From: Squalus acanthias
Lineage: Eukaryota
Assembly: GCA_030390025.1 (NCBI GenBank)
Contig: CM059434.1
Location: 131,440,001-131,504,000 of the forward strand
Direction: 5' to 3'
DNA: 64,000 nt
The notes under the pieces were generated by a model. It was not told the origin of the DNA, did not search any database, and saw only the letters and a list, made by a program, of their open reading frames with translations. Positions 3,440 through 45,940 of the stretch are shown piece after piece; positions within the stretch are counted from its first letter, which is position 1, and each line of letters starts with the position of its first letter. The position numbers were made by a program, and so were the translations under genes.

Positions 3440-4401
3440 CCCAAGTCACAGGCCTGAAGGTGTTAATGGCCTCGGTTTTTTTTTTGTTCTTGTTTTCCCC
3501 TGAGCAGAGGGAGCTCTTAAATTGAAGGCACACCTCTCCCTTTAGTTGATTGAGTTGGGAGAGGGGCCTTCTCCCCTCTGCTCAATGGGTACTTAATTAA
3601 AAAGATAATGAGGTGCCTCTTAGAGAGAGAGAGGCAGAGAGAGACAAGAGACAAAGAGAGAGAGAGAGAGAGGGGGGTGGGAAGGAGGGAAGCCGCAAGG
3701 GCAGGGTCGCCACTCAGGATGGTGGGTGGGTGGGTGTTGGCAGGGGGGTGCACTCTCCGATGTAATACAAGTCTTTGGTGGTGGTCTTCTGGTGGGGGGA
3801 GAAGATGTCTTCACCTGGGATAGCTGGAGATGCCCAGGCTCAGTCCTGCACCAGGTCTTAACGATGCCCAATTGGATTAAATTAATTGGGGAACTTCACC
3901 TAGGCAGCTCCAGCTGTCCCAGGTCAGGCAATGGGAAAGGGGTGTTTAATATGGTGTGTGCGGCCTAGCTTTTACAGAAGCCACACACACTCACACACAC
4001 ACCCCTTAGATGTTCCGGCCCTCTTCTTTTCTTCTTTCCTCCCCCCACCTACAAAACAAAGTCTCTGGGAGAGTGCCCCAGAATCACACCCACCTGTAGC
4101 TGTTCTTTCCTTCCTTCTTCCTCCTTCCAAACAGATGATGGTTGTTGTGTTGTTTTCTCCCCTCTCTCCCTCTCCTAAAATGGAGGCCAATTGAGGAGGC
4201 AGTGTGGAAAGGCCTCTCCTCTGTTGTTGATGGCCTTGGCCTTCCTTTCTTCTCCCTCTCCTCTCCTGTCCTCTCTCTCCAGGCACCTCAGTTGTGGATG
4301 TGTTGGTTGTTGGTGGTGGCCTGCTGTCTGGTCTCCTTCTCCTTCTCCTCTTCCTGCTCACAGAGACCACCACTCTGCTGCTGCTGCTGCTCCTCAGTCA
4401 G

Positions 4402-11798: not shown

Positions 11799-12129
11799 TT
11801 ACGCAGTGGGAAAGCGGTCTTCCCAGCCCAGTTTGCTTTGCAGTTTCCGAATCTTCTCCTTTATTGTGTCTACCTTTGTCTTTGTGTTTTGATTGGCTAT
11901 ATAGCTCTTGCCTTCTTCAAAGTCCTTCAGTATGGTTTCCAGTAGGACTGTAAGCCACGCCCTATCATACTGTGCTGATTCGCCCATGACCTCTTCAATT
12001 TGTTTATCAACATGATCCAGGAGTTCTTCATCTTCTACAATATAAGTAGTGATCTTCAGACTAGGATGGTGCTCTTTGAGTTGCTGAATATTTCTCTGAC
12101 CACGCTCACCAAATCTGTTTCCACATAAA
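11799..12129 (-). CDS. Coding exon 8: last LRR, C-terminal helical cap and stop
   Basis: Acceptor gttttcag. LCGNRFGERGQRNIQQL...YDRAWLTVLLETILKDFEE...KLGWEDRFPTA*. In frame with ORF 11799..11987. Confidence 0.88.
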
Positions 12130-15100
12130 CTGAAAACGACAAAAGCAATTTAGTTGTGAAAAGCCTTAAACATAGACAAGTCTTTCCGTATTGGCTCTGT
12201 GTTCATTTACTGTCAACATGAAGAGGTGAAGTTACACAGTGGATTATTTAACCAAACTCAGTATATACAGTATGTATATACTGAAATGTTATTTACTTGT
12301 ATAATTCTCTGCATTACTCAGAGCCAATTCCAATTTCTTTTCAGTCTCAATTTTTTGAATTTTCTCTCCTTAGGACTCGTGTGTGTCATTCATGGACATT
12401 GTCAGTCCTGTCCAGTTGGCTCTTCTTAATGTGTGAATTGAGACAGCGAGGTAGGTTTTGTGAGCTTGCTCTCCCAGTATTGAGCCACACTCGAAGGGAG
12501 TGGGGGTCAGAGAAAGAATCACAACATTGTAGCCCTAATTATCTGACCCACGGCCCCTTTGAGTGCAGGTGTAAGCTAGGAGCACACAGCCATGCAGCTC
12601 CACGCTAGGAGCCCACAATTGCAGAATTTAACCTCGTGAGTCTTGGCAAGCTATTTAACCATGGGAGGCATTATAATTGACCCCATGCTGTCCCTGGTCA
12701 ATGTCCACATGTGTATCAAGGAACAACCCAGCATGGAGAGAGTTTGGAGCTGGTGAGCTTCACCTCAGGGAGAGACACCATATCTGGAAACATTTCCAAG
12801 TGCAGAAACCTCCCCAAGTCCTGAAGGTAACCAAACAAAAACCTCAAAGGAATTTCAAGGAAAATTGGGTGCGATGTATATAAAGGGCGGCTGATCCACT
12901 ATTGCCCCTTTTTGGGCCACCACTGCAGTTGGATTTCACCCCCAGTGTCTGCCCATTTTCCATCCCTTTGAAGGAGAGGCCAACTCAAGCTGAGGTGATC
13001 TAAATTAAGCAAAGGTTGTGTAGTCGTGAGTTAAGCTGAAATTATCAACATGAGACAATTGTGATTTCAGTTTAGTTTAATTTCCATCCCAAGTGGCATC
13101 AAGCCAATTCCCTGGGGAAGGAAATGAGCCCTGCTTCCCTTTGGAGATGCACTGGCCTCACACAACTAGCGCATAGCAAGAAAGAGGCTGGAGATAGAGC
13201 GGTAGAAAAAAGAAGACATATTGAGCTGAGGGAGGGAGGGAATATCCGGGAAACAGTACAGAATGGGATGAAAAGAAAAAGGGGACGAAAGGCCGAGGTG
13301 AAAGACAATCAAAGGCACAGAAAGATGATGAGTAAGTAACGAGTGGATTTTAATTATGCAATTCATCACAGGCATTTGTAGGGAGCAAAATCAAAAACTG
13401 GCAACCTAAGGGACAGGATGGTGCAATAGGTTGGACATTGACATTTCATCTCTAGGAGCTCGGTTTAAATCCAACATAAACAACAAACTGATTTCAGACT
13501 TACTGCAGGGTCTCAATGGTTTCATTGTGTGTCAGACACTGACTCATCTTCTCTGTGTCTTCATCAGTGATTTCATTATGGTACAGGTAAAGGGATTTTA
13601 AACTTCTGTTACTTTTGAGTGCTTCGAACAACAGCTGAGCTCCTCTGGATTTAAGGGCATTCGTTCCAATTCTAAAAAGACACAAGAGCAGAACTGTCAT
13701 GGCTTGTACTTTCCTTCAAAATCGATACAATCTTTTTGTTCTTTATTAATAGACGTTACACATTAGAAATACTTACGACAACTTTTCAACAACACAATCT
13801 TTTCCTTTGAGAATGTCACTGAAAACCTTGGCTGATTCCTCGGTCAGCTTGTTTGAGCTTACCCTGCAACAGAGGATGAAGACAATTTGAATGAGGGTTA
13901 AATTAAAATGTTGTATGCTCCAATCTAAGCTAGAGAAGTTTGAGTTTCAGACGTGTATGTTCTGAGGATCTGTAACCTCACAGTTAAGAAAGGCTGTGGT
14001 AAAGAATTCGCTTGGTAAAGAATTTCAGAACCTTGGCGAAACAATGTTTGTATCGCACAATGGACAAACTATCTGCAGAAACACGCAATGGAGGATGCAA
14101 ATCCTCTTCCATAATATTCCAAACTTTCAGGTTTGCAGGAGATGGCCAGGAATGAAAAGCCAATGCAGCACGCACAACCTCATGGTAACTGGTTCTATCC
14201 TCCATCACTCGTTTGATGTTGTTTTCTTCTCAACTACATTATGTCACTGTCCAAACTCCTTGCTGGAATTGGTCTGGCACATCAGACTACTTGGGTTCTT
14301 TTCCATTGTATTTCACCTCCTTTACTATCACCAGAAGCTTTGTTTATTATCTGGTCTTGACCACTGGAGACGCCTCTCTCACTGAAGATCTTCTTTGTGT
14401 TTCTGTACAGCACCTAACACCTTCTCAAACCTCAGCCTGCTGGTACCATCGTCATTTCCTACCAGTCTGCACATCTGACTGTCCGGATCTATGAGCCTGA
14501 TAGCTCTTAAAACATCCAAATGCCATTCTCACTTTGCCCATTTTATACTATAGAGAAACGAAAGGCAACTCCAGCTTGCCCATTGCCACATACCAGTTTG
14601 CAGTTCAGAAGCACCTGTTCACCTCCAGCCATCTCTGGGTCATCTTACTAATCTTTCCTTAAGTTTCTTGACACAACAAGCTGTTGACTTCATACACCAG
14701 GAGAACCCGCACAGTTTGGAATTAGGAAGCAACGTGTGAGCTAATAACATCTCAGAGCATTCAGATAATATGACCATGGGACTGAAACTAGTGATATAGG
14801 CTGATCATAGAATAATACAGCACAGAAGGAGGCCATTTGGCTCACTGTGCCTGTACCAGCTCTTTGAAATAGCTATCCAATTAGTCCCACAATATTCCAG
14901 CTGGGGTCTAACCAGTGATTTATAAAGGTTTGGCATAACTTCTTTCCTTTTGTACTCAATGCCTCTATTTATAAAGGCAAGGGTCCCAAATGCTGCTGCT
15001 TTTTTTTTTAAACAGCCTTCTCAACTTGTCCTGCCAACTTCAAAGATTTGTGTATGTAAACCCCTGGTTTTGGTCTCCTTATCTGAGAAAGGACATACAT

Positions 15101-18100
15101 GCCTTAGAGGCAGTGCACTAGATTGATCCCTGGGATGAGAGGGTTGTCCTATGAGGAGATATTGAGTAGATTGGGCCTATACTCTCTGGAGTTTAGAAGA
15201 ATGAGAGGCGATCTCATTGAAACATAAGATTCTGAGGGGGATTGATAGGGTAGATGCTGAGAGATTGTTTCCCCTGGCTGGAGTGTCTAGAACTAGGGGG
15301 CACAGTCTCAGGATAAGGGGTCGGCCATTTAAGACTGAGATGAGGTGGAATTTCTTCACTCAGAGGGTTGTGAATCTTTGGAATTCTCTGCGGGCTGTGG
15401 ATGCTCGATTGTTGAGTATATTCAAGGCTGAGATAGATAGATCTTTGGACTCTAGGGAAATCAAGAGATATGGGGATCGGGCAGGAAAGTGGAGTTGAGG
15501 TCGATGATCAGCCATGATCTTATTGAATAGCAGAGCAGGCTCGAGGGGCCGTAGAGCCCACTCCTGCTCCTATATATTTTCTTGTGTCTTCCAGCCCTCC
15601 AAAAGCTCTGCGTTCCTCCAACTCTGGCCTCTTGTGCACCCCCAACTTTGCCCCAACATTGACGGCCGTGCCTTCAGCCCTCTAGCCCCAAAGCTCTGCA
15701 ATTCCCTCCCTAAACCTCTCTGCCGCTTCACTTCTCTCACCTCCTTTAAGATGCTGCTTAAAACCTACCTCTTTGACCAAGCTTTTGGTCACCTGTTACA
15801 ATGTCTCCCTCTTTGGTTCTGTTCAATTTTTGTCTGATTATTTTCCAGTGAAGTGCCTTGGGATGTTTTACTACGTTAAAGGTGCTATGTAAATGCAAGT
15901 TATTACTGTAGTTGTTTTTACTCACAAGATATGCTTGCTGCTCCGTAACACCTCCTTGAGCTGTTTAATTCCTTCATCCCCCAAGGCACAGAGTCTTAAA
16001 TCCAATTCTTCCACATTGGAATGACTGAGACAGTAGCATAAAGCAGAGATGTCTAGTGGGCTCAGAGAAATGTTTAAAAGCTCTACACGTTTGATATGAG
16101 GAGATACTTCTGCTGTTACAGTTGGATCATGCAGTTCAAAAAGACAACGCATTAAATTCAGCAACTCTGACGTCTTAATGTCTCGCTCGAGACAGTTTTT
16201 GAACCAGGTCACGAGAGCTCTGGCTGTAGAATGAGTGAGAGGAGCTGTACAGTTCCACAACTTGCCGTCTCTTCCTGCTGTTAAGGAGCCCATGAGAAGC
16301 CTGGTGAAATTGTACAGTTTCTCGGTGTGTTTGGGCTGAAATGGTTGCAGATAAAATTGGCTTTTTTGATTCTGTGGCGTTTTCCCAAAACACCAAAGAT
16401 CCAGACATTTGACCAACTCTTGAGCATCATCATTCAGTGAAGTCGCACAATACAAAGCTGCAAACTGTTCCTTCAGCACAACATGGTAGAACTCAAAGAT
16501 ACTTTGGCCTTTACACTTCTTTTCCAAGATAAGATTTGAGAAATACTTTGAAAGAACTTCTGGGTCTATTTCATAGGCATCCAGATCAGCTTTCTTCATT
16601 TCAAGTGTCCCTGACAGCAGGTTGTTGAAGGACAGTTCCCCCACTTTCAGGACAGTGTCTTGAAGCACTTTGTTTTTCTGGTCAATCTCAGATTTATCAA
16701 TAGCGATCACCATCTCTTCAGATGAATGTGCAGAACAAGGCGAACTGCAGTTAAACAGGCTGTAAAGGAACAGCAAGAACACTTTGCTGTGCGTCAGTGG
16801 CATTTTTGCCAACGCCTCAGGACAGCAGTCCAAAATATTGCACAGGATGTAGCTGTTGAGGGGATTAGAAGCCAGGCAGGTGATGGTCTCATTTTCTGTA
16901 AAGTGTTTATACATTTCTGCTGCCTTTTCCTTTTCCGGATAGAACACTTCACAATATTGTTTCAACTGATCATTGGTAAACCCGGAGATAATAAGGATGC
17001 AATCAAAATACTTCTTGTTAGATTCTGCCTGCTGGCTATTCCATCGGGAGGTAACCAATACCTGTGCTGCTGGAAGGAGATCCCTGGAAATTATTTTGGA
17101 CACAAGAACATTTACTTCAGCCTCAGTGTCCATGTTAAAATCACCGACCGGTGGATCCCATCGCAACTGATGGCTGAATTCATCCAGTCCATCCAAAATG
17201 ATCAGCACATCATGAGGGTTACAGAGAAGTTCCGTTAGGACTGAAGACAGTGGCTCGCAGTGCTTCTTGAGCAGTTTCCGTAGAGTGGTCTTTCCTTCAA
17301 CCCCATTTAAGTCGGAGAATCTGAAAACAATGACACACTTAAACTGCAGCTCATTTGAATTTGATGCCCATTCTTGTTGAATCATATTCACTGCCCAGCT
17401 TTTACCCGCTGCCACATCTCCCACCAGCAAGGTTCGATTTGAGAGGCACTTTTCACTCTGGACCAAAGACAGCAGTTGTGTTGGCTGGATTTCTGTGGCT
17501 TTATCTGATTCTGTGCTTTTGCTGATAGCTTGAATTCTGTTTTCCTTTGGGTACAGAACACTTATACTTCGACTCAGGCTGCTGTAACACCTGGGAATGC
17601 TGCCATTCAATGTTCCTATTTCTTCAGCAGGAATTTTCAAGATGCCATCTTTGTAATGTTGAATGGCAGCTGAAAGCAAAATAGATTTGAAAGTTTATTT
17701 TCCCACAACAACACACTTGTATTTATATAGCGCCTTTAACGTAGTAAAACGTCCCAAGGCGCTTCACAGCACTGTTGTAAAACAACATTTGACACCGAGC
17801 CACATAAGGAGATATTAGGGCAGAAAACTTGGTCAAAGAGGTAGGTTTTAAGGAGCGTCTTAAAGGAGGAAAGAGAGGTAGAGAGGCGGAGAGGTTTAGG
17901 GAGGGAATTCCAGAGCTTAGGGCCTTGGCAGCTGAAGGCACGGCCACCAATTGTGGTGCGATTAAAATCGGGGATGCTCAAGAGGCCAGAATTAGAGGAG
18001 CACAGATATCTCGGGGGGTTGTGGGGCTGGAGGAGATTACAGAGGTAAGGAGGGGCGATGGAGGGATTTGAAAACAAGGATGATAATTTTAAAATCGAGG

Positions 18101-21100
18101 TGTTGCTTAGCCAGGAGCCAATGCAGGTCAGCGAGCACGGGTGATGGGTGAACGGGACTTGGTGCGAGTTAGGACACGGGCAGCAGAGTTTTGGATGAAT
18201 TCAAGTTTACGGAGGGTAGAATGAGGGAGTGCGTTGGAATAGTCAAGTCTAGAGATAACAAAGGCATGGATGAGGGTTTCAGCAGCGGATGAGCTGAGGC
18301 AGGGGCGGAGTCGGGCGATGTTATGGAGAGAGTTGGCTAAAGTGGACTGGGAAAATAGATTAGAAGGTAGAAAAGCAGTGGCAGTCATTTAAAGAGATAT
18401 TTCATGACTCTCAACAAAGATATATTTCAGTGAGAAAGAAAGACTCGAAGAGAAGGATGAACCATGGCTAAACAAGGAAGTTAAGGATGGTATCAAATTG
18501 AAAGAAAAGGCATACAATGTTGCAAAGATTAGTGGTAGGCCAGAAGATTGGGAACATTTTAGAAACCAGTAAAGGATGACTAAAAAAATAATAAAGAGGG
18601 AGAAAATAGCTTATGAGCGTAAACTAGCAAGAAATATAAAAACTGACAGTAAGGACTTCTACAAGTATATAAAAAGGAAGAGAGTAGCTAAAGTAAATGT
18701 TGGTCCCTTAGAGGACGAGACTGGGGAAATAATAATGGGAAACAAGGAAATGGCAGAGGCATTGAACAAATATTTTGTATCTGTCTTCACAGTAGAGGAC
18801 ACTAAAAACATCCCAGTAATAGTAGGAAATCAAGGAGCAAAAGGGAGGGAGGAACTTAAAACAATCACTATCACTGGAGAAAAAGTGCTCGGCAAACTTA
18901 TGGGTCTAAAGGCTGACAAGTCCCCTGGACCCGATGGCCTGCATTCGCGTCTCTTAAAAGAAATGGCTACAGAGATAGTGGATGCACTGGTTGTAATCTT
19001 CCAAAATTTCCTTGACTCTGGAAAAGTCCCAGCGGATTGGAAAACTGCAAATGTAACACCCTTATTCAAAAAAGGAGGGAGACAGAAAGCAGGAAACTAT
19101 AGGCCAGTTAGCCTAACATCTGTCATTGGCAAAATGCTTGAATCCATTATTAAGGAAGTAGTAGCAGGGCATTTAGAAAATCATAATACAATCAATCAGA
19201 GTCAATATGGTTTTATGAAAGGGAAATCGTGTTTGACAAATCTATTAGAGTTCTTTGAGGAGGTAACGAGCAGGGTGGATAAAGGGGAACCAGTAGATGT
19301 AGTGTATTTGGATTTCCAAAAGGCATTCGACAAGGTGCCACATAAAAGGTTACTGCACAAGATAAGAGCTCATGGTGTTGGGGGTATTTTACTAGATTGG
19401 ATAGAAGATTGGCTAACTAACAGAAAACAGAGAGTCAGGATAAATGGGTCATTTTCAGGATGGCAATCTGTAACTAGTGGGGTGCCACAGGGATCAGTGC
19501 TGGGGCCTCAACTATTTTCAATCTATATTAATGACTTGGATGAAGGGAGCGAGTGTATTGTAGCCAAATTTGCGGTCGATACAAAGATAGGTGGGAAAGC
19601 AAGTTGTGAGGAGGACATAAAGAGTCTGCAAAGGGATATAGATAGGTTAAGTGAGTGGGCAAGAATTTGGCAGATGGAGTATAATGTGGGAAAATGTGAA
19701 GTTATCCACTTTGGTAGGAAGAATAGAAAAGAAAAATATTATTTAAATGGAGAAAGACTACAGAATGTGCCGGTACAGAGGGATCTGGGTGTCCTCGTAC
19801 ATGAAACACAAAAAGTTAACATGCAGGTGCAGCAAGTAATTAGGAAGGCAAATGGAATGTTGGCCTTTATTTCAAGGGGGATAGAGTATAAAAGTAGGGA
19901 AGTCTTGCTACAACTGTACAGGGCGCTGGTGAGACCACACCTGGAGTACTGCGTACAGTTTTGGTTCCCTTATTTAAGGAGGGATATACTTGCATTGGAG
20001 GCAGTTCAGAGAAGGTTCACTAGGTTGATTCCTGGGATGGAAGGGTTGTCTTATGAGGAAAGGTTGAGCAGGTTGGGCCTATACTCATTGGAGTTTAGAA
20101 GAATGAGAGGTGATCTTATTGAAACATAAGATTCTGAGGGGGTTGGACAGGGTAGATGCAGAGAGGATGTTTCCCCTCGTGGGGGAATCTAGAACCAGGG
20201 GGCATAGTTTCAGAATAAGGGGTCGCCCATTTAAGACAGAGATGAGGAGGAATTTCTTCTCTCAGAGGGTCGTGAATCTTTGGAATTCTCTACCCCAGGG
20301 AGTTGTGGAGGCGGAGTCATTGAATATATTCAAAAATGAGAAGTCGCACAACACCAGGTTATAGTCCAACAGATTTATTTAATTTTACAAGCTTTCGAGC
20401 TGTCGCTCCTTCCTCAGGTAAGTTAGCAGTGAGAGAATCTCCCAGAATTCACAATTTAAACACAGACAAAATCTATTCAAATATTTCCCTACATCAAAGA
20501 CACACTAAGAGCACAGCCAAGACAATGAGATGTGTCCCAGGGGGTCCAACGTGTCAAACCACCTGCTGGCTGCATATCCTGTCAATTTGTGTTAGTCTTT
20601 TTAAAAAAAAAAAACCCACCTGGGAAGACCGGCCATGATGTCAAGTCACGTTCTGTATCGTGACATGAACCCATGGACCAGTTGAACCAGGAACACTCCT
20701 CGTCACGATGGACGTATCGGCACTCTACACCAATATCCCCCACAATGACGGCATCGCTGCGACAGCCTCAGTACTCAACACCAACAACAGCCAATCTCCG
20801 GACGCCATCCTACAACTCATCCGCTTCATCCTTGACCACAATGTCTTCACCTTCGACAACCATTTTTTTACCCAAACACACAGAACAGCCATGGGGACCA
20901 AATTCGCACCCCAATACGCCAACATCTTCATGCACAAGTTCGAGCAAGACTTCTTCGCTGCACAGGACCTCCAACCAACGCTGTACACCAGATACATCGA
21001 CGACATCTTCTTCCTTTGGACCCACGGCGAAGGATCACTGAAAGGACTACACGATAGCATCAACAGGTTCCATCCCACCATCAAACTCACCATGGACTAC

Positions 21101-24100
21101 TCCTCAGAATCGGTTTCATTCTTGGACACACGAATCTCCATCAAAGACGGATGCCTCAGCACTTCACTCTACCGCAAGCCCACGGACAACCTCACGATGC
21201 TCCACTTCTCCAGCTTCCACCCTAACCACGTTAAAGAAGCCATCCCCTATGGACAAGCCCTGCGAATACACAGGATCTGCTCAGACGAGGAGGAACGCGA
21301 TGGACACCTACGGACACTGAAAGACGCCCTCGTAAGAACGGGATATGACGCTCGACTCGTCGATCGACAGTTCCGACGGGCCACAGCGAAAAACCGCATA
21401 GACCTCCTCAGAAGACGAACACGGGACACAACCAACAGAGTACCCTACGTCGTCCAGTACTTCCCCGGAGCGGAAAAACTACGCCATGTTCTTCGCAGCC
21501 TTCAACATGTCATCGATGACGACGAACACCTTGCTAAGGCCATCCCCACGCCTCCACTACTCGCCTTCAAGCAGCCGCCTAACCTCAAAAGTACCATCGT
21601 TCGCAGCAGATTACCCATCTTTCAGGAGAACAGCAACCAAGACACCACACAACCCTGCCACGGCAAACTCTGCAAGACATGCCAAATCATGGACACAGAT
21701 ACCATCAGCACACGTGAGGACACTACCCACCAGGTACACGGTACATACTCATGTGACTCGGCCAACGTTGTCTACCTGATACGTTGCAGTAAAGGATGCT
21801 CCAGAGCATGGTACATCGGCGAGACCATGCAGACACTGAGACAACGTATGAACGGACACCGCGCAACAATCGCCAGGCAGGAGGGTTCCCTCCCAGTCGG
21901 GGAACACTTCAGCAGCCAGGGGCATTCAGCCTCGGATCTGCGGGTAAGCATTCTCCAGGGCGGCCTTCGGGATACACGACAGCGCAAAATCATAGAGCAG
22001 AAACTGATAGCCAAGTTCCGCACTCATGAGGATGGCCTCAATCGCGATATCGGGTTCATGTCACGATACAGAACGTGACTGGACATCATGGCCGGTCTTC
22101 CCAGGTGTTTTTTTTTTTAAAAAGACTAACACAAATTGACAGGATATGCAGCCAGCAGGTGGTTTGACACGTTGGACCCCCTGGGACACATCTCATTGTC
22201 TTAGCTGTGCTCTTAGTGTGTCTTTGATGTAGGGAAATATTTGAATAGATTTTGTCTGTGTTTAAATTGTGAATTCTGGGAGATTCTCTCACTGCTAACT
22301 TACCTGAGGAAGGAGCGACAGCTCCGAAAGCTTGTAAAATTAAATAAATCTGTTGGACTATAACCTGGTGTTGTGCGACTTCTCATTTTTGTCCACGCCA
22401 GTCCAACGCCGGCATCTCCACATCATGAATATATTCAAGGCAGAGATAGACAGATTTTTGAGCAACAGGGGAGTCGAGGGTTATGGGGAGCGGGCAGGAA
22501 AGTGGAGTTGAGGACAAAATCGGATCAGCCATGATCTCATTAAATGGCGGAGCAGGCTCGAGGGGCCGAATGGCCAACTCCTGCTCCTATTTCTTATGTT
22601 CTTATGTTTTATAAAACTTTATATAATGTACATTTTTACTAAGTTTTCTAGATGATGTTGAATGAATCTTAATTGCACTGCCCAAGCAACTCATCATTGG
22701 AGTTTATGGTGGGGACCGAGCATTGCCTGCCCGACTGGGAGCCAAGTATGTCAATCTGGGAAAAAAAGACGGCACAGTGTGTGGGGGAAACCGGACTTCC
22801 CCATGACCAAAACTTCCCCCGCTCACAAAACCTGCCCCAGTAAATATCGGGGCCATAGAGTACAAAAGCAAGGAAGTTATGCTAAACCTTTATAATTCAT
22901 TGGTTGGGCCTCAGCTGGAGTATTGTGTCCAATTCTGGGAACCACTTTTAGGAAGGATGTCAAGGAGAGGGTGCAGAGGAGATTTACTGGAATGCTACCA
23001 GGGATGAGGGACTTCAGTTATGTGGAGAGACTGGAGAAGCTGGAATTGTTCTCCTTAGAGCAGAGAAGGTATAAGGGGAGATTTAATAGAGGTGTTCAAA
23101 ATCATGAAGAGTTTTGATAGAGTAAATAAGGAGATATTGTTTCCACTGGAAGAAGGGTTGGTAACCAGCGGACACAGATTTAAGGTAATTGGCAAAAGAG
23201 CCAGAGGTAAGATGAGGAGATTTTCTTTTACGCTGTGAGTTGTTGTGATCTGGAATGCACTGCCTGAAAGGGTGGAGGAAGCAGATTCAAAAATAACTTT
23301 GAAAAGGGAATTGGAACATGAGGGGGTGAAAATTACAGGGCTATGGGGAAAGAGCAGGGGAGTGGGACTAATTGGACAGCTCTTTCAAAGAGCCGGCACA
23401 GGCACGATGGGCCGAATGGCCTCCTTCTGTGCTGTAAGATTCTATGATTCTACGATTCTATTTTTTCACATTGAACGGGATGTCCCAAAGCGCTTTGTGA
23501 CCAATTAATTACTTTTGAAGTATTGTCATATGCATCAGCCGGTTTGTGGTAGGGAAACGTAATTTGTCTGGGGTATCACTTCTGGCTCAGTTGGTAGCAC
23601 TCTCGCTTCCGAGTCAGAATCTAGGCTGACACTCCAGTGTAGCTGGATGAAAAAGATCCCATGGCAGTATTCGAAGAAGAGACCGGAGGGAAACCGGAGA
23701 TCCCCCAGTTTCCTGGGCAATATTTATCCTTCAATCAACATCATTAAAATAGATTATCTGGTCATTAACTCATTGTTGTTTGTGGGAGCTTGCTGTGCGC
23801 AAATTGACTTCCGCATTTCCTGAATTACAACAGTGACTACACTTCAGAAAGTCTCTCATTGGCTCTAAAGTGCTTTGTGACATCCCGAGGTCTTGAAAGG
23901 CGCTATATAAATGCAAGTTCTTTCTTTCTAATCTAAGCACAGACAGACTAACATTGAAACAACACTTTATCGCATTTCTCAGAAGCATCTCAAGGGTTTA
24001 CTTCAAAATACTGTGATTATTGTTATGTAGAGAAATGATTCAGCCATTTTGTGCCCAGCAAGATCCCACAAATAGCAAAGAGGTGAAAGGCCAGTAGATC

Positions 24101-27100
24101 TAATTTTTTCGAGGCTTCTCATTACAGGAGTAATGTTGTCCAGAACACTGAGCGACCCACCTGCTTTACTCTAAATAGAACCATGGGATCTTTAACATCC
24201 ATCCGAAGCATCAGAGCAGGGACCTTGTTTCTTTCTTTCACAATTTATAATATATTCTAGACAACATGGCACGGGCTCGACAGGCCGAATGGCCTTCTTC
24301 CGTGTTGTAACCATTCTACATTTCTATGATAACAGCAAAATTGAAAGACCTAGGAGTCTTAGATTCAACACTCAACGTGCCCAACCAATGCCATCAACTA
24401 ACTATGGGATCTTTAACATCCTCCTAAATCACTAGATCTCAATTTAGTGTCTCATCCAAAGGAATGCACCTTCATGGGTTCATGAACTGCATGCTTTGTT
24501 GGTACACCCACGGTGTCTGATTTTGCTCTTGGCAGTTAGTTTTCTGATAGACTTTACAAGGCTTCAAAAAGACAGCAAAGAACGAAGGGTTTGATTCTGA
24601 ACAAGATCTAATATACAAGAAATGGGGAGGAAATCACTTGACCAAAATAGTGATGCACAGGTGTGAATTTCTTAAAAGGGGCAGTCTCCTTTCGTGATTA
24701 TTTTTCTCCATGGATGATGGCAAATGTTAACCATATTTGATTGCTGAATTTCTTTCAAAGAACGAAGACCATGTGCCAGAAATGACTTGCTGATGTTAGT
24801 TGATAACACTCAACATATCCATGGGACATTCCTCTTTCTGTTTTAGTGGAGACAATAGCCCATTTAAAATAAATGTAACACCTGTATTAAAATGGTGAAA
24901 TGGGCGAATGTGTGAAGTATTGTCCACTGAAGCCACCACCAGTCCTTTTTCAGGCCCATGCCTGAGGTTGGTAATATAATGTCTACCCCACAAGCAAATT
25001 CACCTTTGGTTGGACCGCAATAAGCCTTCATAGAATCATAGAATAGTACAGCACAGAAGGAGGCCATTCGGCCCATCGAGTCTTTTGAAGAGCAATCCCG
25101 TTATTCCCACTCATCCGCTCTTTTCCATATCCCTGCAATATTTTCTCCTTCAAGTATTTATCCAATTTCCTTTTGAAGGCTGCTACTGAATCACCACCAC
25201 CACCCGATCAGGCAGTGCATTCCAAATCCTAACCATACGTTGCGCAAAAATGTTTTCCCTCATGTCGCCTCTGGTTCTTTTGCAAATCTGTGTCTTCTGG
25301 TAACCCTCCAGCCATTGGAAACAGTTTCTCTTTATTTACTCTAACTAAACCCTTCATGATTTTAAACACCTCTAGCAAATCTCCCCTTAGACTTCTCTGC
25401 TCTAAGGAGAACAAATCCAGCTACTCCAGTCTATCGACGTTACTGTAATCTCTTATCCCAGGAACCACTCCAGTAAATCTCTTCTGTAACCTCTCCAAAG
25501 CCTTCACGTCCTTTCTTACTTACACGAGCAGAAAGATTTAATTATCAGATAAAACAGTTGAACACATTACCTTGTAGGAGGGCATCAGTTGACAGGAGTG
25601 GTGTTTCTAGAGAAAAAAAAATGTAGTGACTGTTAGTTATAGGATAAATAAAGACAGTGATTGGACCTGATGTCTATTGATAGGAATTTATTTATTTGTG
25701 AATAAAACCTAACATTAGCCCAATACGGAACTTATAGCTCCTACCAAACAACAACAAACCTAAAAGCAATAGCCACTGTTTTTAAAGGTCATGAAAAACA
25801 AGCAAAGGTTATTATTATACTCTCGTATTTAGGATTGCAGCTTATTATCCTCATCTACAAGCTCCTCTATGACCTCGCTCCTCTCTGCCTTTCCAACCTC
25901 CCCAAGCCTTACGAGGGTGAAATTGGTCTCAGGCAATAGCGCAGAATGGGAGATAGCGAATTGTAAGCCTGTTTTATATCCCATTTGAATTTCTTTTCCA
26001 TTAAACCAGAGACCAATTTCATCCCAGCATCATCCACTTATCCAACTCTGGTCTACTGTGTGTTCCCCCTCTCTCTATTCCAACCATAAATGGCAGGGCC
26101 TTCAGCCATCTCACCCCAAACGCTTAAACTCCCCATAAACTCCTCTGCCTTCCTTCATCCTTTCCCACCTTCAAAAGCCTCCGGAAGATCCCAGCTCTTT
26201 CACTACCTGTTCAGTCACTTCTCCTCATTCTCCTACTCCAACTTGGATCTGACCACCAACTGTAGAGTGCCTTGGGACTCTTTCCTATGTTAAAGGTGCC
26301 ATAGAAATGTAAGCTGCTGTAATAAAAGCCTCCTGTGCAGACATTATAGACGTCTTGGGATACTGTTTGGTGACACTGAGAACTAGCTCAGCCCTGGAAC
26401 ACATGACTTGTCAAATCATTTTACAGTAAAGTTACGAGATGGAGATTAAGTCGATAAATACAGTAACACAAGATAGGTAGACTAACAGGAATAGAAGTTG
26501 TGAAAATTCAACAATCACATCACCTATTAATAAAAGATCTGATAATAAACCTATTCTAACATCAATGACAGTTTTCACACACAATGTGGACACTGGGAAT
26601 CATTATGTTCCAGATTTGCTTCTGTTGATGAAAACAAGCAGCTATTCTTAATTACTTGACTTACTTTCAGTGCTAAAGTTTTGTCCTTTTCTGTTTTTGA
26701 TTTTCCAAATTCCAATTCCAGTTGCAACAGCTCCAACGAGAACTACACAAATGATCAGCACTGAGATTCTGCTTCTTCCTTTTGCGGTTGGATCTTTTGG
26801 GCCATTTCCAATCCATGGTGTATCTGAAGTATCAGGACAAGCATAACATGACATTTGAGAAAGGTTCTTCAGGGAACGGAGCCAGCAGAGGATCACAATC
26901 GCTTTCTTGCTGTGAAGTGCTTCCATCACTAAACAATTTCCAGCTGTCCCCTGCCGACCTCGAGACACTTGACTTTTTCCAATCATTTTACACTAAACCT
27001 CTAACAGACGGAAGCTGCTGATCAATGGGATTGATTACAATTCAGACAGATTTTTTAAATTCACGATTGGATTAAAATTATTCTTCACAAATCATAAATC

Positions 27101-30100
27101 ACAAACATAATACAATAAAGGCACCGCTTTTAGTTTGTATATTTTCATCAAAATGTGACCATTTATGAAGGCATCCTATTAACTCCCACAACTCATTGCT
27201 CACACTCCTTATTTTCCTCCAAATCATCAGTCCTCTACATGAAAGGGTTTCCAAATGCTGTAGTTATTATTCAGAAGGCTTGAATATGGTTATTGTTCGG
27301 AAACAGGATTGGGAATTGACATCCTAAGCTCGAAAAGTGGAGAACGAGTCGGATTCAGGAGAGATGATTGAGCACCACTGCTGTCAATTCAGGGGGTGGA
27401 GGAAATAACACTGTCTTTAAATTACAGAGTTTTCGATGAGCACAAGTTTATTGAGAGTGCAAAGCCGGCCAGGAGAGAATTGGAATAGTCGAGACTGGAG
27501 GTAACAAAAGCATGGATGGAGGTAGCAGATGGCTGAGGCAGGGGTGGAGACAGACGATATTACGGAAGTGGAAGTAGCTGGTCTTTGTGATGTTTGAATG
27601 CTAATATCAGGCAGCAAAATTTCAATACCATTGAGTATAAGTTACTGCTATGGATTAATGGGCTGCACTCAGAATTTTATAATCAAGTCTAGTTTCTATT
27701 TATAATATATTAAATACCTGCAGAAGGAAACAGCTGCTCTAAAAACAAACAACATGGATCACGCAGAAGGTCAAAATTGTTAGGCTAATTGAAGGAACTC
27801 AATCTCGGAGTGGGAGCAAGTATATTTGTGCCAGTTGTGGGTCACAACATACAATATGATCGAACAAAAGAGAGAAAATTCTACTAAGGAATTTAGAATG
27901 AAACTGTTAACAGGATTATATGTCAGCAAGCAGAACGCTGAAAAACAAAGGGCTGGGTTTTGTCAGCCCCGAGGAGGCGGGTATGGAGGCAGGGACTGCC
28001 GGTAAAGTTGCAGAATTTGGGGGCGGGTCCCATCCCGCCTCCGTGCCCTCTTGCCAGGAGGCGGGAAGCCGTCCGGCCCCGGGTCCCGTCTCCTCAAGGT
28101 GGGAAAGGGATTAAAGCCTATTAACTGCCTGCTAACAGTTAGTTAACAGGCAGAAAATAGGATTATTCCCATTTTACCTTTCCGAGTGCAGGCTTCCTGA
28201 CCTCGGGGAACCCTGCCAGGGTGGAGGAGACGAGTAGGAGGTCTGCGGGGGTCGGAGGGGTCTGAAAGTGCGATGTAGAGGTGAGTGATGGGTGCAAGTG
28301 TGGAGTGGTAAGTATGTAAGGTGAGTGTAAAGTGTTAGAAAATGTTCACTTACCTTTGTTTCTGCCTACAGCCTTCAGCCGCTGAGTAGCCGGAGTCCCA
28401 ACATCTCCATTGTAGATTTCACAGACTGGCTGTTGGATCCTCCGAACCAGCAGCCAGGTGATTTCTGCAAAGTTGAAAGGTTTGATGAGTCCTGAACACA
28501 AGGACTCATCAAACTACACAGAATGTCAGTGTTTGACAGCTTCACAGAGCTGTCAAACGATGACATTTCTTCTTTCAAAAAATCTTGACAGATGGCACGT
28601 CATACATTGACGTGCTCTGTCAATGACTTCCCCCTAATTGGCCTGCTGAGCCCGCTGGGCGGGCTTAACAAGGTCAATCAGGGGAGAATGCCGCTGGTTG
28701 GCCAGAAGCTGATGGAGGCGGGATTGAAAGCCGACAAGCAGCAGTCCCGCCTCCAAAAGCTTCCCATTGACAAAATCCAGCCCTAAATGTTGCACTACTC
28801 CGGGAGAGCTATAATTAGGGACAGATTTATTGAATGTTCTCTCCACCAGCAGTTTCTTGTGCCACTAGTCCAATCATTTTACATTACCTCAAAATATTTC
28901 ACTCAAGAATTTTGACCAGAATGATCACTAAATACATCCAGTGAAAACTAAACCATGCGTGTGGCGATGTTTATTTCAGCAGCAACCCGACTTTTGGTGT
29001 AATTATTCATAAGTTTCCATAGTTAATTATTGTAGCATTGATATCCTACTGCATAACGTCAATTGAACCTACTGTTAAGGAGCACATCTCACTAAAATAT
29101 AATTTTCATAACCGCAGGATTGTCACTAATTTGTACAAACTAGCTACATTGATATTTATAAACCTTGCTCACCAAGCACTTTCAGTTCCACCACGTTCCT
29201 GGTGTGTCCGCTCCTGTCCTCCTGAATCACATAGCACGTGTAGCTCCCTGTATCTGATGCAGTGACTCCTTTTAGTTTAAGAGTCGCATTCCCTTTGGGG
29301 AATTCCCGGGGAAACAGTTCCGTTCGTCCCCTGAATGCTGGGTCCTGATACTCCGGACGGTCCGCCTCATTGTAGAAGCTGTGAACCACTGTGTGACTGT
29401 CTGTCTGCTGCCAGTTAACGACAAGATCCTGCAGATTCAACCTGGCTGCAGCAGGAAAGGTGGCGAGCAGCAACACGTCTTCACCTGAGACTCCGTATGC
29501 TCGAGAGAAAGCTGCTGTTCCTAAAGAATCATAGACATTGTGTGAAGCAGAGGCTTCTTTTAGACATCTTGCCTAGTTGTAATGTGAAACCGAGTGTCAC
29601 TAGTTTCAATCTGTTGACCTGACGACCCAGCCCGATACAGCAGCCGTCAAATCTCCATCAAGCATTGATGCAGTTTGAGGAAGAGAGCAGCTTTTAGCAT
29701 CTTCCAGAACGACTGCTGAGGAGGCGTAACAATCAGAGTTTGAACTACAAGCTGAAGACAGCCAGAAGAAGATTCACGGGTGCTAGGACAGACCACTACG
29801 TCCAGTACTTCACAGGAGGAAGGGAGAGGGAAACTGTCGAGGTCAGCTAAACCCTTGTCTGGCCCATCGACAGAATTATTTTTTTATTATTCATTTATGG
29901 GATGTGGGCGTCGCCGGCAAGGCCAGCATTTATTGCCCATCCCTAATTGCCCTCGAGAAGGTGGTGGTGAGCCGCCTTCTTGAACCGCTGCAGTCCGTGT
30001 GGTGAAGGTACTCCCACAGTGCTGTTAAATATACCTACATGTCATTGATGGTGAGCACAGAAAACAGTGCCACTGGATTATTAAAACTGTGCCCCCTGGA

Positions 30101-42100: not shown

Positions 42101-45100
42101 TTCACTTTTAGGGCTTAAGATTATTGTTTTATATAAAAATTCAGATACTCCATAAATGTTGACATTTTGAGCATTTTATGAGGTAACTTGCCTTTGCTCA
42201 TGTTCATTAAAGACTGATTAAAGTCAGCAACCTCAAACGCTTTAAGACAGGAACCAGCTGATGATGAGGATATCAGTGGGGGGAGGATGCCTGATGGTGT
42301 GAAAGAGACAATGCCTTGTTGGAGAAAGAGGCAGGAACGCGATGGGGTGGGTTCCAAAAGGATCTAAGGGCAGTTTGGGTCCAATTCTCCTGGGCCCCAC
42401 TCCCACAAGGTTGTCAGATCCTTACTGCTCGATACTCCCAGATCCCAAAAACATCCAAATCTCCCTCACCTCTTCCACGGTCCTGTTGGATCCAGCCAAT
42501 CGCCCCCCCCTACACCTTGCAGGATTCCTCCTCCCAGACCTGGGACTTCCTGTCAGTGCTCGCAAACCTGCAGAATGCATTCCAGTGCTCCCTGATCCAG
42601 GACCACCTCACTGCTCCTAAACCCTGGAACCTCGTTTCCCAATACACTCACATCTCAGGACCTCTCCTCCAGTTAACCCAGATCCCAGCACCTGCCTCAG
42701 TATTCCCAGAAGCCTGGGATACCTCCCAGTGCCATGACCCTAGGACCTGACTCAAAAATCTGCTAGACTCAGAGACCCCATCCCATCCCAGTATTGCCAG
42801 ACCTCAAACTCCCTTCCTAGTCACCCATTCATATCACAGGCGACCCCAAATGCCAATAAGAACATATGAACAGGAGTAGGCCTTTCAGCCTCTCAAACCC
42901 ACAGCATCCACAGCCTTTTGGGGGAACGAGTTCCAGATTTTCACTATTCTTTATGTGCAAAAGTGTGGAAAAGGTATTTCCTGATTTCACTCCTAAATGG
43001 CCTGGCTTTAATGTTAAGATGATGCTCTCTTGTTCTGGATTTCCCCACCAGAGGAAATAGTTTCTCTGTATCTACCCTATTGAATCCCTTCATCATTTAT
43101 ATACCTCGATTGCATCGACCCTCAACTTCTAAACTCAAGGGAATAATAAAATCAGTGTCTCTGATCATGCTGCTTGGCACCACACCTCTTGTTATAAAGC
43201 AGCCCCTTATTCTAAGACTATGTCCCCTAGTTCTCGTCTCACCCATCATCGGGAACATCCTCCCCGCATCCACCCGATCCAACCCCTTCACAATCTTATA
43301 TGTTTCAATAAGATCGCCTCTCATTCTTCTGAACTCCAATGAGTAGAGTCCCAATCTACCCAACCTCTCCTCATATGACCACCCCCTCATCCCCGGGATT
43401 AACCGAGTGAACCTTTTTTGCACTGCCTCGAGAGCAAGGATGTCTTTCCTTAAGTAAGGACACCAAAACTGTATGCAGTATTCCAGGTGCGGTCTCACCA
43501 ATACCTTGTACAACTGAAGCAATACCTCCCTATTTTTATATTCTATCCCCCTAGCAATGAAAGCCAACATTCCATTTGCCTTCTTAATCACTTGCTGCAC
43601 CTGCATACTAACCTTTTGAGTTTCGTGCACCAGGACCCCCAGATCCCTTTGCACTTCAGTACTCTCCAGTTTCTTGCCATTAAGATAATAAATTGCTCTA
43701 GGATTTTTCCTGCCAAAGTGCATCACCTCACACTTTCCAGTGTTGTATTCCATCTGCCAAATCTCTGCCCACTTACTTAGCCTGTCTATGTCCCCTTGCA
43801 GGTTTTTTATGTCCTCCTCACTCACTACTTTCCCTCCCATCTTTGTATCATCTGCAAATTTTGATATGTTACACTTGGTCCCTTCCTCCAAATCGTTAAT
43901 ATAGATTGTGAAGAGTTGGGGACCCAGCACTGACCCCTGTGGAACACCACTAGTTACTGATTGCCAGTCTGAGAATGAACCATTTATCCCAACTCTTTGC
44001 TTTCTGTTAGATAGCCAATCCTCTATCCATGCCAGAATATTACCCCCAATCCTGTGATTTTTTACCTTAAGCAATAATCTTTTGTGTGGCACCTTGTCAA
44101 ATGCCTTTTGGAAGTCTAAATACACTACGTCCACTGGTTCCCCTTTATCCACTCTATATGTTACTTCCTCAAAGAACTCCAGCAAATTTGTCAAACATGA
44201 CTTCCCCTTCGTAAAACCATACTGACTTTGTCCTATTAAATTATGATTATCCAAATGTCCTGTTACTGTTTCCTTAATAATGGACTCCAAAATTTTACCT
44301 ACCACAGATGTTAGGCTAACCGGTCTATAGTTACCAGCCTTCTGTCTACTGCCCTTTTTAAATAAGGGTGTTACATTAGCAGTTTTCCAGTCTGCCGGGA
44401 CCTTAGCGGAATCCAGGGAGTTTTGAAAAATTATTACCAATGCATCTACAATCCCTACCGCCACTTCCTTCAAGACTCTAGGATGTAAGCCATCAGGTCC
44501 AGGTGATTTATCCGCCTTGAGTCCCATTATTTTACCGAGTACCACTTCCTTAGTGATTTTGATCGTGTTTAACTCCTCTCCCCCTATAGCCCCCTGTTTG
44601 TCCAGTGTTGGGATATTCTTAGTGTCCTCTACTGTAAAGACTGATACAAAATATTCATTCAGTGTTTTTGCCATCTCCATATTTCCCACCATTAATTTCC
44701 CGGTCTCATCCTCTAAGGGACCAACATTTACTTTAGCCACCCTTTTTCTTTTTATATAACTATAAAAACTCTTACTATCTGTTTTTATATTTTTTGCTAA
44801 TTTACTTTCATAATCTATCTTCCCTTTCTTAATCAATCTTTTTGTTATTTTTTGCTGCCTTTTTAAGTTTTCCCAATCCTCTGTCCTCCCACTAGATTTC
44901 GCTACCTTATATGCCCTTGTTTTTAGTCGAATACTATCCTTAATTTCTTTACTTAGCCACGGATGACTGTCCTTTCTTTTACACCCTTTTCTTTTCAGTG
45001 GAATATATATTTTTTGGAAGTTGTAAAATAACTCCTTGAATGTACACCACTGATCATGTGTCGTCTTACCCTTTAATCTATTTTCCCAATCCACTCTACT

Positions 45101-45940
45101 CAATTCCGCTCGCATACCTTCATAGTCTCCTTTATTCAAGCTTAGCACGCTTGTTTGAGATCCAACCTTCTCACCCTCTAATTGAATATGGAATTCAACC
45201 ATGTTATGGTCACTCATTCCAAGGGGATCCTTTACTAGGACATTTTTAATTAATCCTGTCTCGTTACACAGGACCAGATCTAAGGTTGCTTGCCCCCTGG
45301 TCGGTTCAGTTACATACTGCTCAAGAAACCCATCCCTAATACACTCAATGAACTCATCCTCAAGGCAGCCCTGCCCCATTTGATTTGTCCAATTAATATG
45401 ATAGTTAAAATCCCCCATAATTATAGATGTTCCCTTATTACATGCCTCAACTATTTCCTGATTGATACTCCGTCCAATAGAGTTGCAACTGTTCGGAGGC
45501 CGATAGACTACGCCCACTAATGTTTTTTTCCCCTTATTATTCCTTATCTCCACCCAAACTGTTTCATTATCATGATTTTTTGACCCAATATCATTACTCT
45601 GTATTACAGTGATTCCTTCCTTTATTAACATAGCCACCCCACCTCCCCTTCCTTCCTGCCTGTCCTTCCTGATCGTTAAATAACCTGGTATGTTTAATTT
45701 CCAACTTACCAGAAGTAACACCAGAGGAAATCTGCTGGTACAAGTTTAATTTTAAAGACACACACTCGAAGGATTTGTAAATTATTTTATAAGGAAAATC
45801 AACTGACTTGAGGACTTAAAGAAGCAGAGATCAGACTCTGCACAGACATAAAGCTCCCGAGTAAAGAGATTACACTTACCAAGCACAGGGTATTGGAATA
45901 TTAGGATAGCAAATCGGATTGAGTATTTCAGAGACTCCAT
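11799..45940 (-). CDS. Spliced gene, 8 coding exons, predicted 977-aa type I membrane protein: signal peptide-IgV-TM-NACHT-LRR-helical C-cap (Ig-NLR hybrid)
   Basis: Exons 45880-45940, 29173-29520, 26665-26823, 25571-25606, 15926-17669, 13777-13863, 13504-13671, 11799-12129. All introns are GT-AG with phases 1,1,1,1,2,2,2. Lengths sum to 2934 nt, an open frame from ATG to TAA. Confidence 0.85.
13504..13671 (-). CDS. Coding exon 7: two RI-type LRRs (168 nt)
   Basis: IGTNALKSRGAQLLFEALKSNRSLKSLYLYHNEITDEDTEKMSQCLTHNETIETL. Bounded by ctttttag and gtaagt, phase 2-2. Confidence 0.92.
13777..13863 (-). CDS. Coding exon 6: one LRR (87 nt)
   Basis: VSSNKLTEESAKVFSDILKGKDCVVEKL. Bounded by ctgttgcag and gtaagt, phase 2-2. 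Confidence 0.9.
14805..15580. mobile_element. Two CR1 3' fragments in opposite orientation (minus 14805-15065, plus 15065-15580)
   Basis: ILRGIDRVDAERLFPLAGVSRTRGHSLRIRG, plus CR1 3' tails. Confidence 0.75.
15590..15900 (+). mobile_element. L2 LINE 3' end
   Basis: GRAFSPLAPKLCNSLP..FKMLLKTYLF; tail ggtgctatgtaaatgcaagt. Confidence 0.75.
15926..17669 (-). CDS. Coding exon 5: NACHT NTPase (NBD-HD1-WHD-HD2) and first LRRs
   Basis: Walker A GDVAAGKS, Walker B LIILDGLDEF, sensor-1 VLVTSR, WHD FEFYHVVLKEQFAALY, LRR VEELDLRLCALGDEG. Phase-1 acceptor ttttgctttcag is in frame; donor gtgagt. Confidence 0.95.
17705..18327 (-). mobile_element. L2 LINE 3' fragment
   Basis: TLIHAFVISRLDYSNAL..QNSAARVLT; GGRAFSCQGPKLWNSLP. 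Confidence 0.85.
20385..20422 (-). ncRNA. Inverted copy of the Penelope hammerhead (1-nt deletion in stem II)
   Basis: Minus strand reads cttacCTGAGGAaggagcgacagctcGAAAgcttgtaa. Confidence 0.55.
20708..22078 (+). CDS. Penelope RT plus GIY-YIG endonuclease (N-truncated)
   Basis: MDVSALYTNIP, TAMGTKFAP, RYIDDIF, NVVYLIRC..WYIGET..LRQRMNGHR, GLNRD. Confidence 0.9.
   Translation: MDVSALYTNIPHNDGIAATASVLNTNNSQSPDAILQLIRFILDHNVFTFDNHFFTQTHRTAMGTKFAPQYANIFMHKFEQDFFAAQDLQPTLYTRYIDDIFFLWTHGEGSLKGLHDSINRFHPTIKLTMDYSSESVSFLDTRISIKDGCLSTSLYRKPTDNLTMLHFSSFHPNHVKEAIPYGQALRIHRICSDEEERDGHLRTLKDALVRTGYDARLVDRQFRRATAKNRIDLLRRRTRDTTNRVPYVVQYFPGAEKLRHVLRSLQHVIDDDEHLAKAIPTPPLLAFKQPPNLKSTIVRSRLPIFQENSNQDTTQPCHGKLCKTCQIMDTDTISTREDTTHQVHGTYSCDSANVVYLIRCSKGCSRAWYIGETMQTLRQRMNGHRATIARQEGSLPVGEHFSSQGHSASDLRVSILQGGLRDTRQRKIIEQKLIAKFRTHEDGLNRDIGFMSRYRT
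22298..22338 (+). ncRNA. Minimal hammerhead ribozyme in the Penelope terminal repeat
   Basis: ttac-CTGAGGA-a-ggagc-gaca-gctcc-GAAA-gc-TT-gtaa. Confidence 0.7.
22850..23460 (+). mobile_element. CR1 3' fragment
   Basis: ERVQRRFTGMLPGMRDFSYVERLEKLELFSLEQRR; ttctatga tail. Confidence 0.8.
25030..25515 (-). mobile_element. CR1 3' fragment
   Basis: FSLEQRSLRGDLLEVFKIMKG. Confidence 0.75.
25571..25606 (-). CDS. Coding exon 4: 36-nt cytoplasmic microexon (K)TPLLSTDALLQ
   Basis: Acceptor ttttttttctctag, donor CAAG|gtaatg, phase 1-1, no stop codon. Confidence 0.75.
26665..26823 (-). CDS. Coding exon 3: stalk, transmembrane helix and basic stop-transfer
   Basis: ISVLIICVVLVGAVATGIGIW followed by KIKNRK. 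159-nt phase 1-1 exon bounded by cttcag and gtaagt. Confidence 0.88.
27950..28783. mobile_element. Non-autonomous DNA transposon (MITE), probably PIF/Harbinger
   Basis: TIRs gggctgggttttgtca ... tgacaaaatccagccc; aaa/taa flanks. Confidence 0.65.
29173..29520 (-). CDS. Coding exon 2: Ig V-set domain, B7/butyrophilin-like
   Basis: GEDVLLLATF..LVVNWQ..VVHSFY..YQDPAFRGRTELF..GNATLKLKGVTASDTGSYTCYV. 348-nt phase 1-1 exon bounded by ttctttag and gtgagc. Confidence 0.92.
30061..40088. repeat. ~10-kb minisatellite, 23-bp unit TGGATTATTAAAACTGTGCCCCC (~430 copies)
   Basis: Uninterrupted tandem array. Variation is in C-run length (4-9) and ACTGT/ACAGT/ACGGT/ACACT variants. Confidence 0.98.
40220..41066. 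mobile_element. MITE of the same family as 27950-28783, opposite orientation
   Basis: Ends in aaaatccagccc. 40870-40910 is the reverse complement of about 28108-28146. The left end is degenerate. Confidence 0.6.
41440..41875 (+). mobile_element. CR1 3' fragment
   Basis: FFTQRVVMIWNAL..FKKELDKYL..GYGERAGEWD. Confidence 0.8.
43195..45702 (-). mobile_element. CR1 LINE ORF2 (partial EN plus RT), open frame, truncated at both ends
   Basis: 874-aa ORF with GGGVAM, GVVYRPP, MGDFNY, SDHN, PGPDG and KFADDTK. Confidence 0.93.
45880..45940 (-). CDS. Coding exon 1: signal peptide MESLKYSIRFAILIFQYPVL(G)
   Basis: ATG at 45940. Phase-1 donor CTTG|gtaagt. An upstream acceptor (ttgatttacag) starts the exon at 45954. 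Hydrophobic leader continues GTAA-FS in the next exon. Confidence 0.75.

Follow-up and report, generated by a model that had tools for sequence, protein, structure and literature searches.

Does a short exon supply the sorting signal of a membrane-anchored NLR-like receptor, and does its splicing decide whether that receptor stays at the cell surface or enters the endosomal system? This question is raised by a minus-strand gene in a stretch of 64,000 nucleotides (nt) of the Squalus acanthias genome (assembly GCA_030390025.1, contig CM059434.1, positions 131,440,001 to 131,504,000; hereafter the window, with positions counted from its first letter), in which a Pfam scan of the 64 kb revealed one exon with a V-set and another with NACHT and HD2. 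The junction between exons 3 and 4 of this gene, exon 4 being only 36 nt long, builds the hexapeptide EKTPLL, predicted to lie on the inner side of the membrane, 12 residues past the single membrane-spanning helix of an IgV-NACHT-LRR receptor. Based on the conservation of this motif across the receptor family, we put at roughly 70% the probability that EKTPLL acts as an acidic dileucine signal that draws the receptor away from the cell surface and into endosomal compartments.

The spliced model encodes 977 amino acids (aa) with no internal stops, in the predicted order signal peptide, IgV, one transmembrane (TM) helix, NACHT and LRR, and includes a signal-peptide exon (45880-45940) that was placed by similarity only. 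A NACHT domain with its Walker A motif, an HD2 and LRRs, the hallmarks of an NLR, are all present, as indicated by Pfam matches and by a GxxxxGKS sequence. In the predicted topology, the IgV domain would be luminal or outside and the NACHT-LRR part cytosolic. The helix covers approximately residues 156-176 and the motif residues 189-194, leaving 12 residues, with a basic stretch, between the helix and the Glu; EKTPLL thus agrees with the [DE]xxxL[LI] consensus and would lie close to the helix on its cytosolic side. Exon 3 (26665-26823, minus strand) encodes the stalk, the TM helix and the basic stop-transfer stretch, and ends with the Glu codon of the motif and the first base of the Lys codon; its donor reads GAA A/GTAAGT, the slash marking the exon border. 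Exon 4 (25571-25606, minus strand), with the acceptor T10-CTCTAG and the donor CAAG/GTAATG, has phase 1-1 and contributes the KTPLL of the motif together with the linker that leads up to the first cytosolic helix, which is encoded by the NACHT exon beginning at 17669. Translation with the exon gives NFSTE-K-TPLLSTDALLQ-A-AIQHY and without it NFSTE-T-AIQHY, with the frame intact and the leucines gone. A preliminary description of this DNA had proposed both this junction, about 12 residues past the TM helix, and a symmetric exon whose skipping retains the frame and removes the signal; the residue positions and the joint, detected in 8/8 sequencing runs, agree with the first proposal and the translation with the second.

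We compared the motif across the family using sets of 22 chondrichthyan proteins (unanchored alignment), of 45 proteins overall, and of 39 proteins with the motif-bearing segment placed on a tree, six segment-less proteins having been removed before the parsimony count. Four models in which the helix or the start of the protein is unclear (Rhincodon P0024, Lissotriton P0231, Pelodytes P0065 and Nanorana P0107) were omitted from tree and counts, and so were additional isoforms of genes already represented and the model P0042 from Callorhinchus. Among the chondrichthyan proteins the Glu was present in 22/22, the first Leu in 21/22, and a Leu or Ile at the second position in 22/22, while at the three x positions the commonest residue reached only 11, 7 and 9 of 22. 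The strict [DE]xxxL[LI] motif occurs 30 or fewer residues from the helix in 35 of the 45 proteins, from sharks, rays, chimaera, gar, amphibians and alligator, against a chance expectation by shuffling of 2.2/45, although the rows are related and the comparison is therefore no p-value. For the window protein itself, shuffling of its own 30 post-TM residues generated the motif in 3.9% of shuffles, and as background, 6.2% of 779 30-aa tiles cut from the family's C-terminal 600 residues contain it. Since a single copy of the motif is only modestly unlikely, it is the family-wide conservation that carries the case.

Parsimony on the 39-protein tree counted one change for the acid at -4 when Asp and Glu were pooled (five unpooled), one for the first Leu, and two for the second Leu position when Leu and Ile were pooled (seven unpooled). 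The other 21 positions required 12-21 changes, and the median over 692 columns was 8. Ile is found at the second position only (8/39), consistent with the consensus. The pattern of a dileucine signal, in which the key positions are kept and the x positions are free, is thus present in these sequences, with the exception of the EKTPFL of Pristiophorus protein A. Conservation of ExxPLL, a check proposed in the preliminary description, held for the acid at -4, the Leu and the Leu/Ile, but not for the Pro at -1, which occurs in 15 of 39 proteins and is not general.

AlphaFold2 modeling of the Heterodontus protein (47 sequences) placed the motif (residues 192-197) in coil with a predicted local distance difference test (pLDDT) value below 50, the next helix reaching ~86. 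In the model of a second ortholog the motif likewise lies in coil of low confidence (pLDDT below 50) between the TM helix and the first cytosolic helix. The motif is therefore predicted to sit in a flexible, disordered linker ahead of the first cytosolic helix.

Conservation of this kind could also be structural or splice-driven, with the leucines packing on the first cytosolic helix or on the membrane and the Glu codon held in place by the donor. The motif does stand directly ahead of a conserved helix, Phe is tolerated at the first Leu in the nearest ortholog, and the window Glu codon, GAA, occupies donor positions -4 to -2. However, in a tandem paralog located 54 kb away (contig C10, 131.39-131.42 Mb), a 30-nt microexon of the same phase gives EKAPLL with GAG as the Glu codon, and Asp and Glu interchange on the tree. 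In gar the acid at -4 is the junction residue itself, one place on (EGVPLI; DCVPLI in Atractosteus; exon borders deduced by comparing the isoforms), and this displacement by one codon means that the acid follows the leucines and not the splice site. Several complete amphibian receptors, moreover, do without the segment, and the motif falls in predicted coil. Taken together, we regard a structural or splice-driven origin of the conservation as quite unlikely.

A number of observations do weigh against a sorting signal. The parsimony alignment was anchored on the motif in 35 rows and by hand in 4, although the alignment made by MAFFT itself agrees on the columns of the leucines, lungfish excepted. 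The closest ortholog, protein A of the sawshark Pristiophorus, which is the nearest neighbor of the window protein in the family tree, carries a degenerate EKTPFL in which the first Leu is lost. Lungfish and one axolotl gene (DEEALT) deviate from the strict motif, and six amphibian proteins lack the segment while the rest of the receptor is kept; with Pristiophorus A and the Mantella copy DDEPLV, these make up the ten proteins without the strict motif. Low pLDDT expresses uncertainty and not exposure, and the window paralog has no IgV B-strand Cys, so that its constraints may differ from those of the family. As for Mantella, a dileucine variant resembling DDEPLV works in Kremen1 (PMC3522622).

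Acidic dileucine motifs constitute a textbook class of sorting signals, and EKQPLL is the form known from human tyrosinase. The preliminary description had invoked that form together with the ERAPLI of LIMP-II; the latter comparison stands, and the chimaera copy, ERAALI, comes close to it, whereas the tyrosinase motif is given as ERQPLL and not EKQPLL in PMC11525306. The [DE]xxxL[LI] motif of LIMP-II binds the adaptor protein (AP) complexes AP-1 and AP-3, with only the E, L and I required (PMC2173715), and hemicomplex binding involves the acid and the two hydrophobic residues, AP-2 also having been shown (PMC11525306). Given that the family keeps just the acid and the leucine positions, with a constant short spacing from the membrane and in a likely flexible linker, EKTPLL is quite probably a working AP-adaptor signal. 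Clathrin adaptors would then bind EKTPLL, with AP-2 (alpha-sigma2) acting at the surface and AP-1/AP-3 inside, and the receptor would cycle through or rest in endosomes with its IgV domain in the lumen and its NACHT-LRR part in the cytosol. Elsewhere in the family the signal may be removed, as in an annotated gar skip isoform and in the segment-less amphibian paralogs.

Even with a working signal, the receptor would be about as likely to reside mainly in endosomes or lysosomes as to stay at the surface, subject there to fast turnover or to basolateral delivery. The receptor may thus carry an adaptor signal and nevertheless act at the plasma membrane, the motif serving turnover, ligand-induced down-regulation or epithelial basolateral delivery. 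Control by phosphorylation could act through the Ser and Thr that immediately precede the Glu; CD3gamma carries a dileucine motif controlled in this way. On the other hand, an extra acid before the motif is common (E or D at -5 in 20/39 proteins), and extra acidic residues at this place are known from lysosomal and melanosomal cargo. Known systems provide precedents for action at the surface, i.e., AP-2 uptake of the surface receptor Kremen1 by a dileucine motif (PMC3522622), basolateral sorting of NKCC1 by a dileucine motif (PMC7761970), and AjNLRC4, a sea-cucumber analog that is a cell-surface receptor (PMC8699970); the shark motif, however, is membrane-proximal, as in LIMP-II. This alternative shares the binding step with endosomal routing and differs in the steady-state place only, and we consider it a reasonable possibility, albeit one below even odds.

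To what extent the exon is used was examined in public sequencing runs, available as Logan contigs. Eight of the 16 runs listed were analyzed, in two sets of four, from four studies and three organism codes; their RNA status was guessed by the tool, none being on record as RNA, and the contigs report presence and not inclusion levels. The joints in these runs fall at exact GT-AG borders, which indicates that the contigs are likely derived from spliced RNA. The joint 25606-26665 (CT..AC, i.e., GT-AG) was present in 4/4 and 4/4 runs, and inclusion of the exon, a check proposed in the preliminary description, is therefore documented in all eight. The direct joint from the TM exon to the NACHT exon, 17669-26665, was not among the joints listed in the eight runs, in contigs that drop rare forms.

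The exon itself occurs in two lengths, with 36 nt in four runs (X1, X4, X11 and X2) and 33 nt in the other four (X3, X8, X9 and X10), the shorter form having one Leu codon fewer downstream of an intact motif. The difference is a 3-nt in-frame deletion at 25576-25578, seen in 4/8 runs under three organism codes; the missing bases are internal to the exon, which ruled out alternative splicing, and the short form reads as an allele. Upstream of the exon, a CTAAC at 25632-25636 (minus strand), 30 nt before the microexon and followed by the T10 tract, has the same spacing in the tandem paralog, and from its consensus we take it to be a putative branch point. Neural microexons of the SRRM4 type carry a UGC element just upstream of the acceptor. 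No TGC is found in the 80 nt upstream of the microexon in either the window gene or its tandem paralog. By size and phase (36 nt, 1-1) it is short and frame-preserving like a cassette microexon, although published size limits differ, with up to 51 nt in one paper and 30 nt or less in another, so that 36 nt is a microexon by the wider definition only. With strong-looking splice signals, no TGC and unbroken contigs, the exon looks constitutive in this shark.

The preliminary description had further suggested that skipping the exon could switch the receptor between surface and endosome. In such a scheme, tissue- or infection-dependent skipping in this shark would generate a surface form and inclusion an endosomal form. 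Besides the preserved frame, an argument comes from gar, in which the RefSeq isoform X2 (XP_015207741, versions.1 and.2) differs from X1 by the absence of precisely the 10-aa segment. Transcript alignments are the usual basis of RefSeq isoforms. A Callorhinchus TrEMBL model also lacks its 11-aa segment, but a short exon may just have been overlooked in it. Of the 36 isoforms that RefSeq names for 15 multi-isoform genes, two are without the segment, the gar X2 by a clean skip and a newt isoform by a start further downstream; clean skipping was found in 1/15 genes overall and 0/11 in chondrichthyans. The symmetric phase is no special sign, as the exons for IgV and TM share phase 1-1 and are likewise left out of certain RefSeq isoforms, a pattern compatible with skipping at a low general level. 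Splice forms that differ in sorting do exist, with NKCC1 exon 21 carrying a dileucine sorting motif (PMC7761970) and CD8beta forms differing in an internalization motif (PMC3606432). In this shark, however, the exon was included on unbroken contigs in 8/8 runs, its branch point and T tract are strong-looking, and the TGC element of neural microexons is lacking. A regulated switch in this shark is in our view very unlikely, while gar X2 keeps the idea alive for the family. The segment-less amphibian paralogs suggest the same contrast at the gene level, unless annotation missed the segment.

The remaining exons, all on the minus strand, were placed as follows. The coding part of exon 1 (45880-45940), with the signal peptide, an ATG and a phase 1 GT donor, was identified by a tblastn match with P0018, the ortholog from Pristiophorus (90% over 21 aa). 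Exon 2 (29173-29520, phase 1-1) encodes the B7-type IgV ectodomain (Pfam V-set 9.6e-12), whose closest solved structures are CD276 (1.6e-26) and VTCN1 (7.6e-16); its joint to the TM exon, 26823-29173, was read in 4/4 runs of the first set. Exon 5 (15926-17669) comprises the first cytosolic helix, NACHT (4.3e-21), winged helix, HD2 (NLRC4_HD2 3.5e-12) and the first LRR, and is bounded by contig joints. It is followed by two LRR exons at 13777-13863 (joints in 4/4 runs and reading-frame check) and 13504-13671 (joints in 4/4 runs), and by the last coding exon (11799-12129), which encodes the LRR end, the C-terminal helices and the stop (joint 12129-13504 in 4/4 runs; tblastn). Altogether, the contigs of four public runs contain the GT-AG joints 29173-26823, 26665-25606, 25571-17669, 15925-13862, 13777-13671 and 13504-12129.

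The B-strand Cys of the IgV domain is replaced by Ala in the window gene (29462-29464, minus strand), and Pristiophorus A as well as two Amblyraja proteins carry Ser there; the canonical IgV disulfide is consequently missing in the window paralog. A contig of run X11 has a Cys codon at this site and may represent an allele or the paralog. The window is repeat-rich vertebrate DNA. The first intron (16 kb) holds a long tandem array with a unit of ~26-27 bp, from ~30080 to beyond 31900, just upstream of the IgV exon, and retrotransposon frames were found at 1253-3445, 18573-20129, 20669-22078 and 43097-45745 (Pfam zf-CCHC, RVT_1), presumably zinc-knuckle ORF1-like, CR1-like reverse transcriptase and Penelope-like reverse transcriptase frames. 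At least 148 more NACHT exons, with ~29-38% identity, are encoded in the same genome on contigs C7, C29 and many small ones, and constitute a large separate NLR expansion. B7-like IgV exons close to the family were searched for at E 1e-12, and none adjoins any Ig-NLR gene on its contig.

The family initially appeared to be restricted to sharks and their relatives, as word-index searches with the NACHT exon or the alignment gave chondrichthyans only; a full HMMER search overturned this result and reached gar, lungfish, salamanders, caecilian, frogs and alligator. All 12 proteins that were scanned have both V-set and NACHT, with a V-set score just below the curated cut-off in alligator. A literature search at the level of titles and abstract openings, with subscription journals thinly covered, found no description of the vertebrate receptor family or its motif, and the covered parts of a whale shark paper (PMC8455134) do not mention an Ig-TM NLR. 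The tandem paralog has the same layout as the window gene; its IgV Cys is intact and its C-terminus differs. In both gars (P0054, P0203) the first Gly of Walker A is Ala. Some RefSeq isoforms lack the TM exon (Stegostoma) or the IgV exon (Pleurodeles, Ambystoma; together P0009, P0201, P0227 and P0072), and their products would enter the secreted path or be devoid of an ectodomain.

NLRs are usually presented as sensors of the cytosol. The family described here is membrane-anchored, and the conserved motif is a first sequence clue to which membrane is involved. In its widest form, our proposal would be an ancient jawed-vertebrate membrane NLR that is sent to endosomes by a dileucine signal, where a B7-like domain samples the lumen and the receptor's own NACHT-LRR part signals, with the small signal exon toggled by splicing (gar) or dropped in duplicates (amphibians) to yield surface and endosomal sensor versions; as a whole we consider this rather improbable. 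If true, the receptor would be the NLR counterpart of endosomal Toll-like receptors. The receptor itself, so far unstudied, has been retained since the split of sharks and bony fish. The motif class and the splicing of sorting signals are already known, and the novelty lies in the carrier protein, with its motif and the exon of that motif.

Set beside the LIMP-II signal and that of tyrosinase (PMC2173715, PMC11525306), the shark motif shares the consensus, the Pro at -1 in the window copy, and a cytosolic, membrane-near and predicted unstructured position. In contrast to these, it lies in a linker ahead of ~780 NACHT-LRR residues rather than in a short tail, it is split by an exon junction, and its binding is predicted. 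With NKCC1 exon 21 (PMC7761970) and the CD8beta M-4 tail (PMC3606432) it has in common that a short or alternative exon bears a dileucine motif; the alternative forms are proven for those proteins, whereas skipping in the shark family is annotated in gar only and was not seen in this shark. The sea cucumber AjNLRC4 and AjNLR-new (PMC8699970, PMC13133943) are likewise membrane NLR-like proteins with Ig, TM and NACHT, a likeness by architecture. In AjNLRC4 the Ig faces outward and the NACHT inward, and lysosomes are where its cargo finally arrives; unlike the shark receptor it has two TM segments, no LRR and an actin-route uptake of bacteria, and the word 'dileucine' is absent from the main text of the paper (PMC8699970). 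Finally, the B7 family (CD276/B7-H3, VTCN1/B7-H4) shares with the shark receptor the IgV domain and the phase-1 layout of signal, IgV and TM exons, whereas the shark receptor has a single IgV without IgC and, instead of a short tail, a full NACHT-LRR part.
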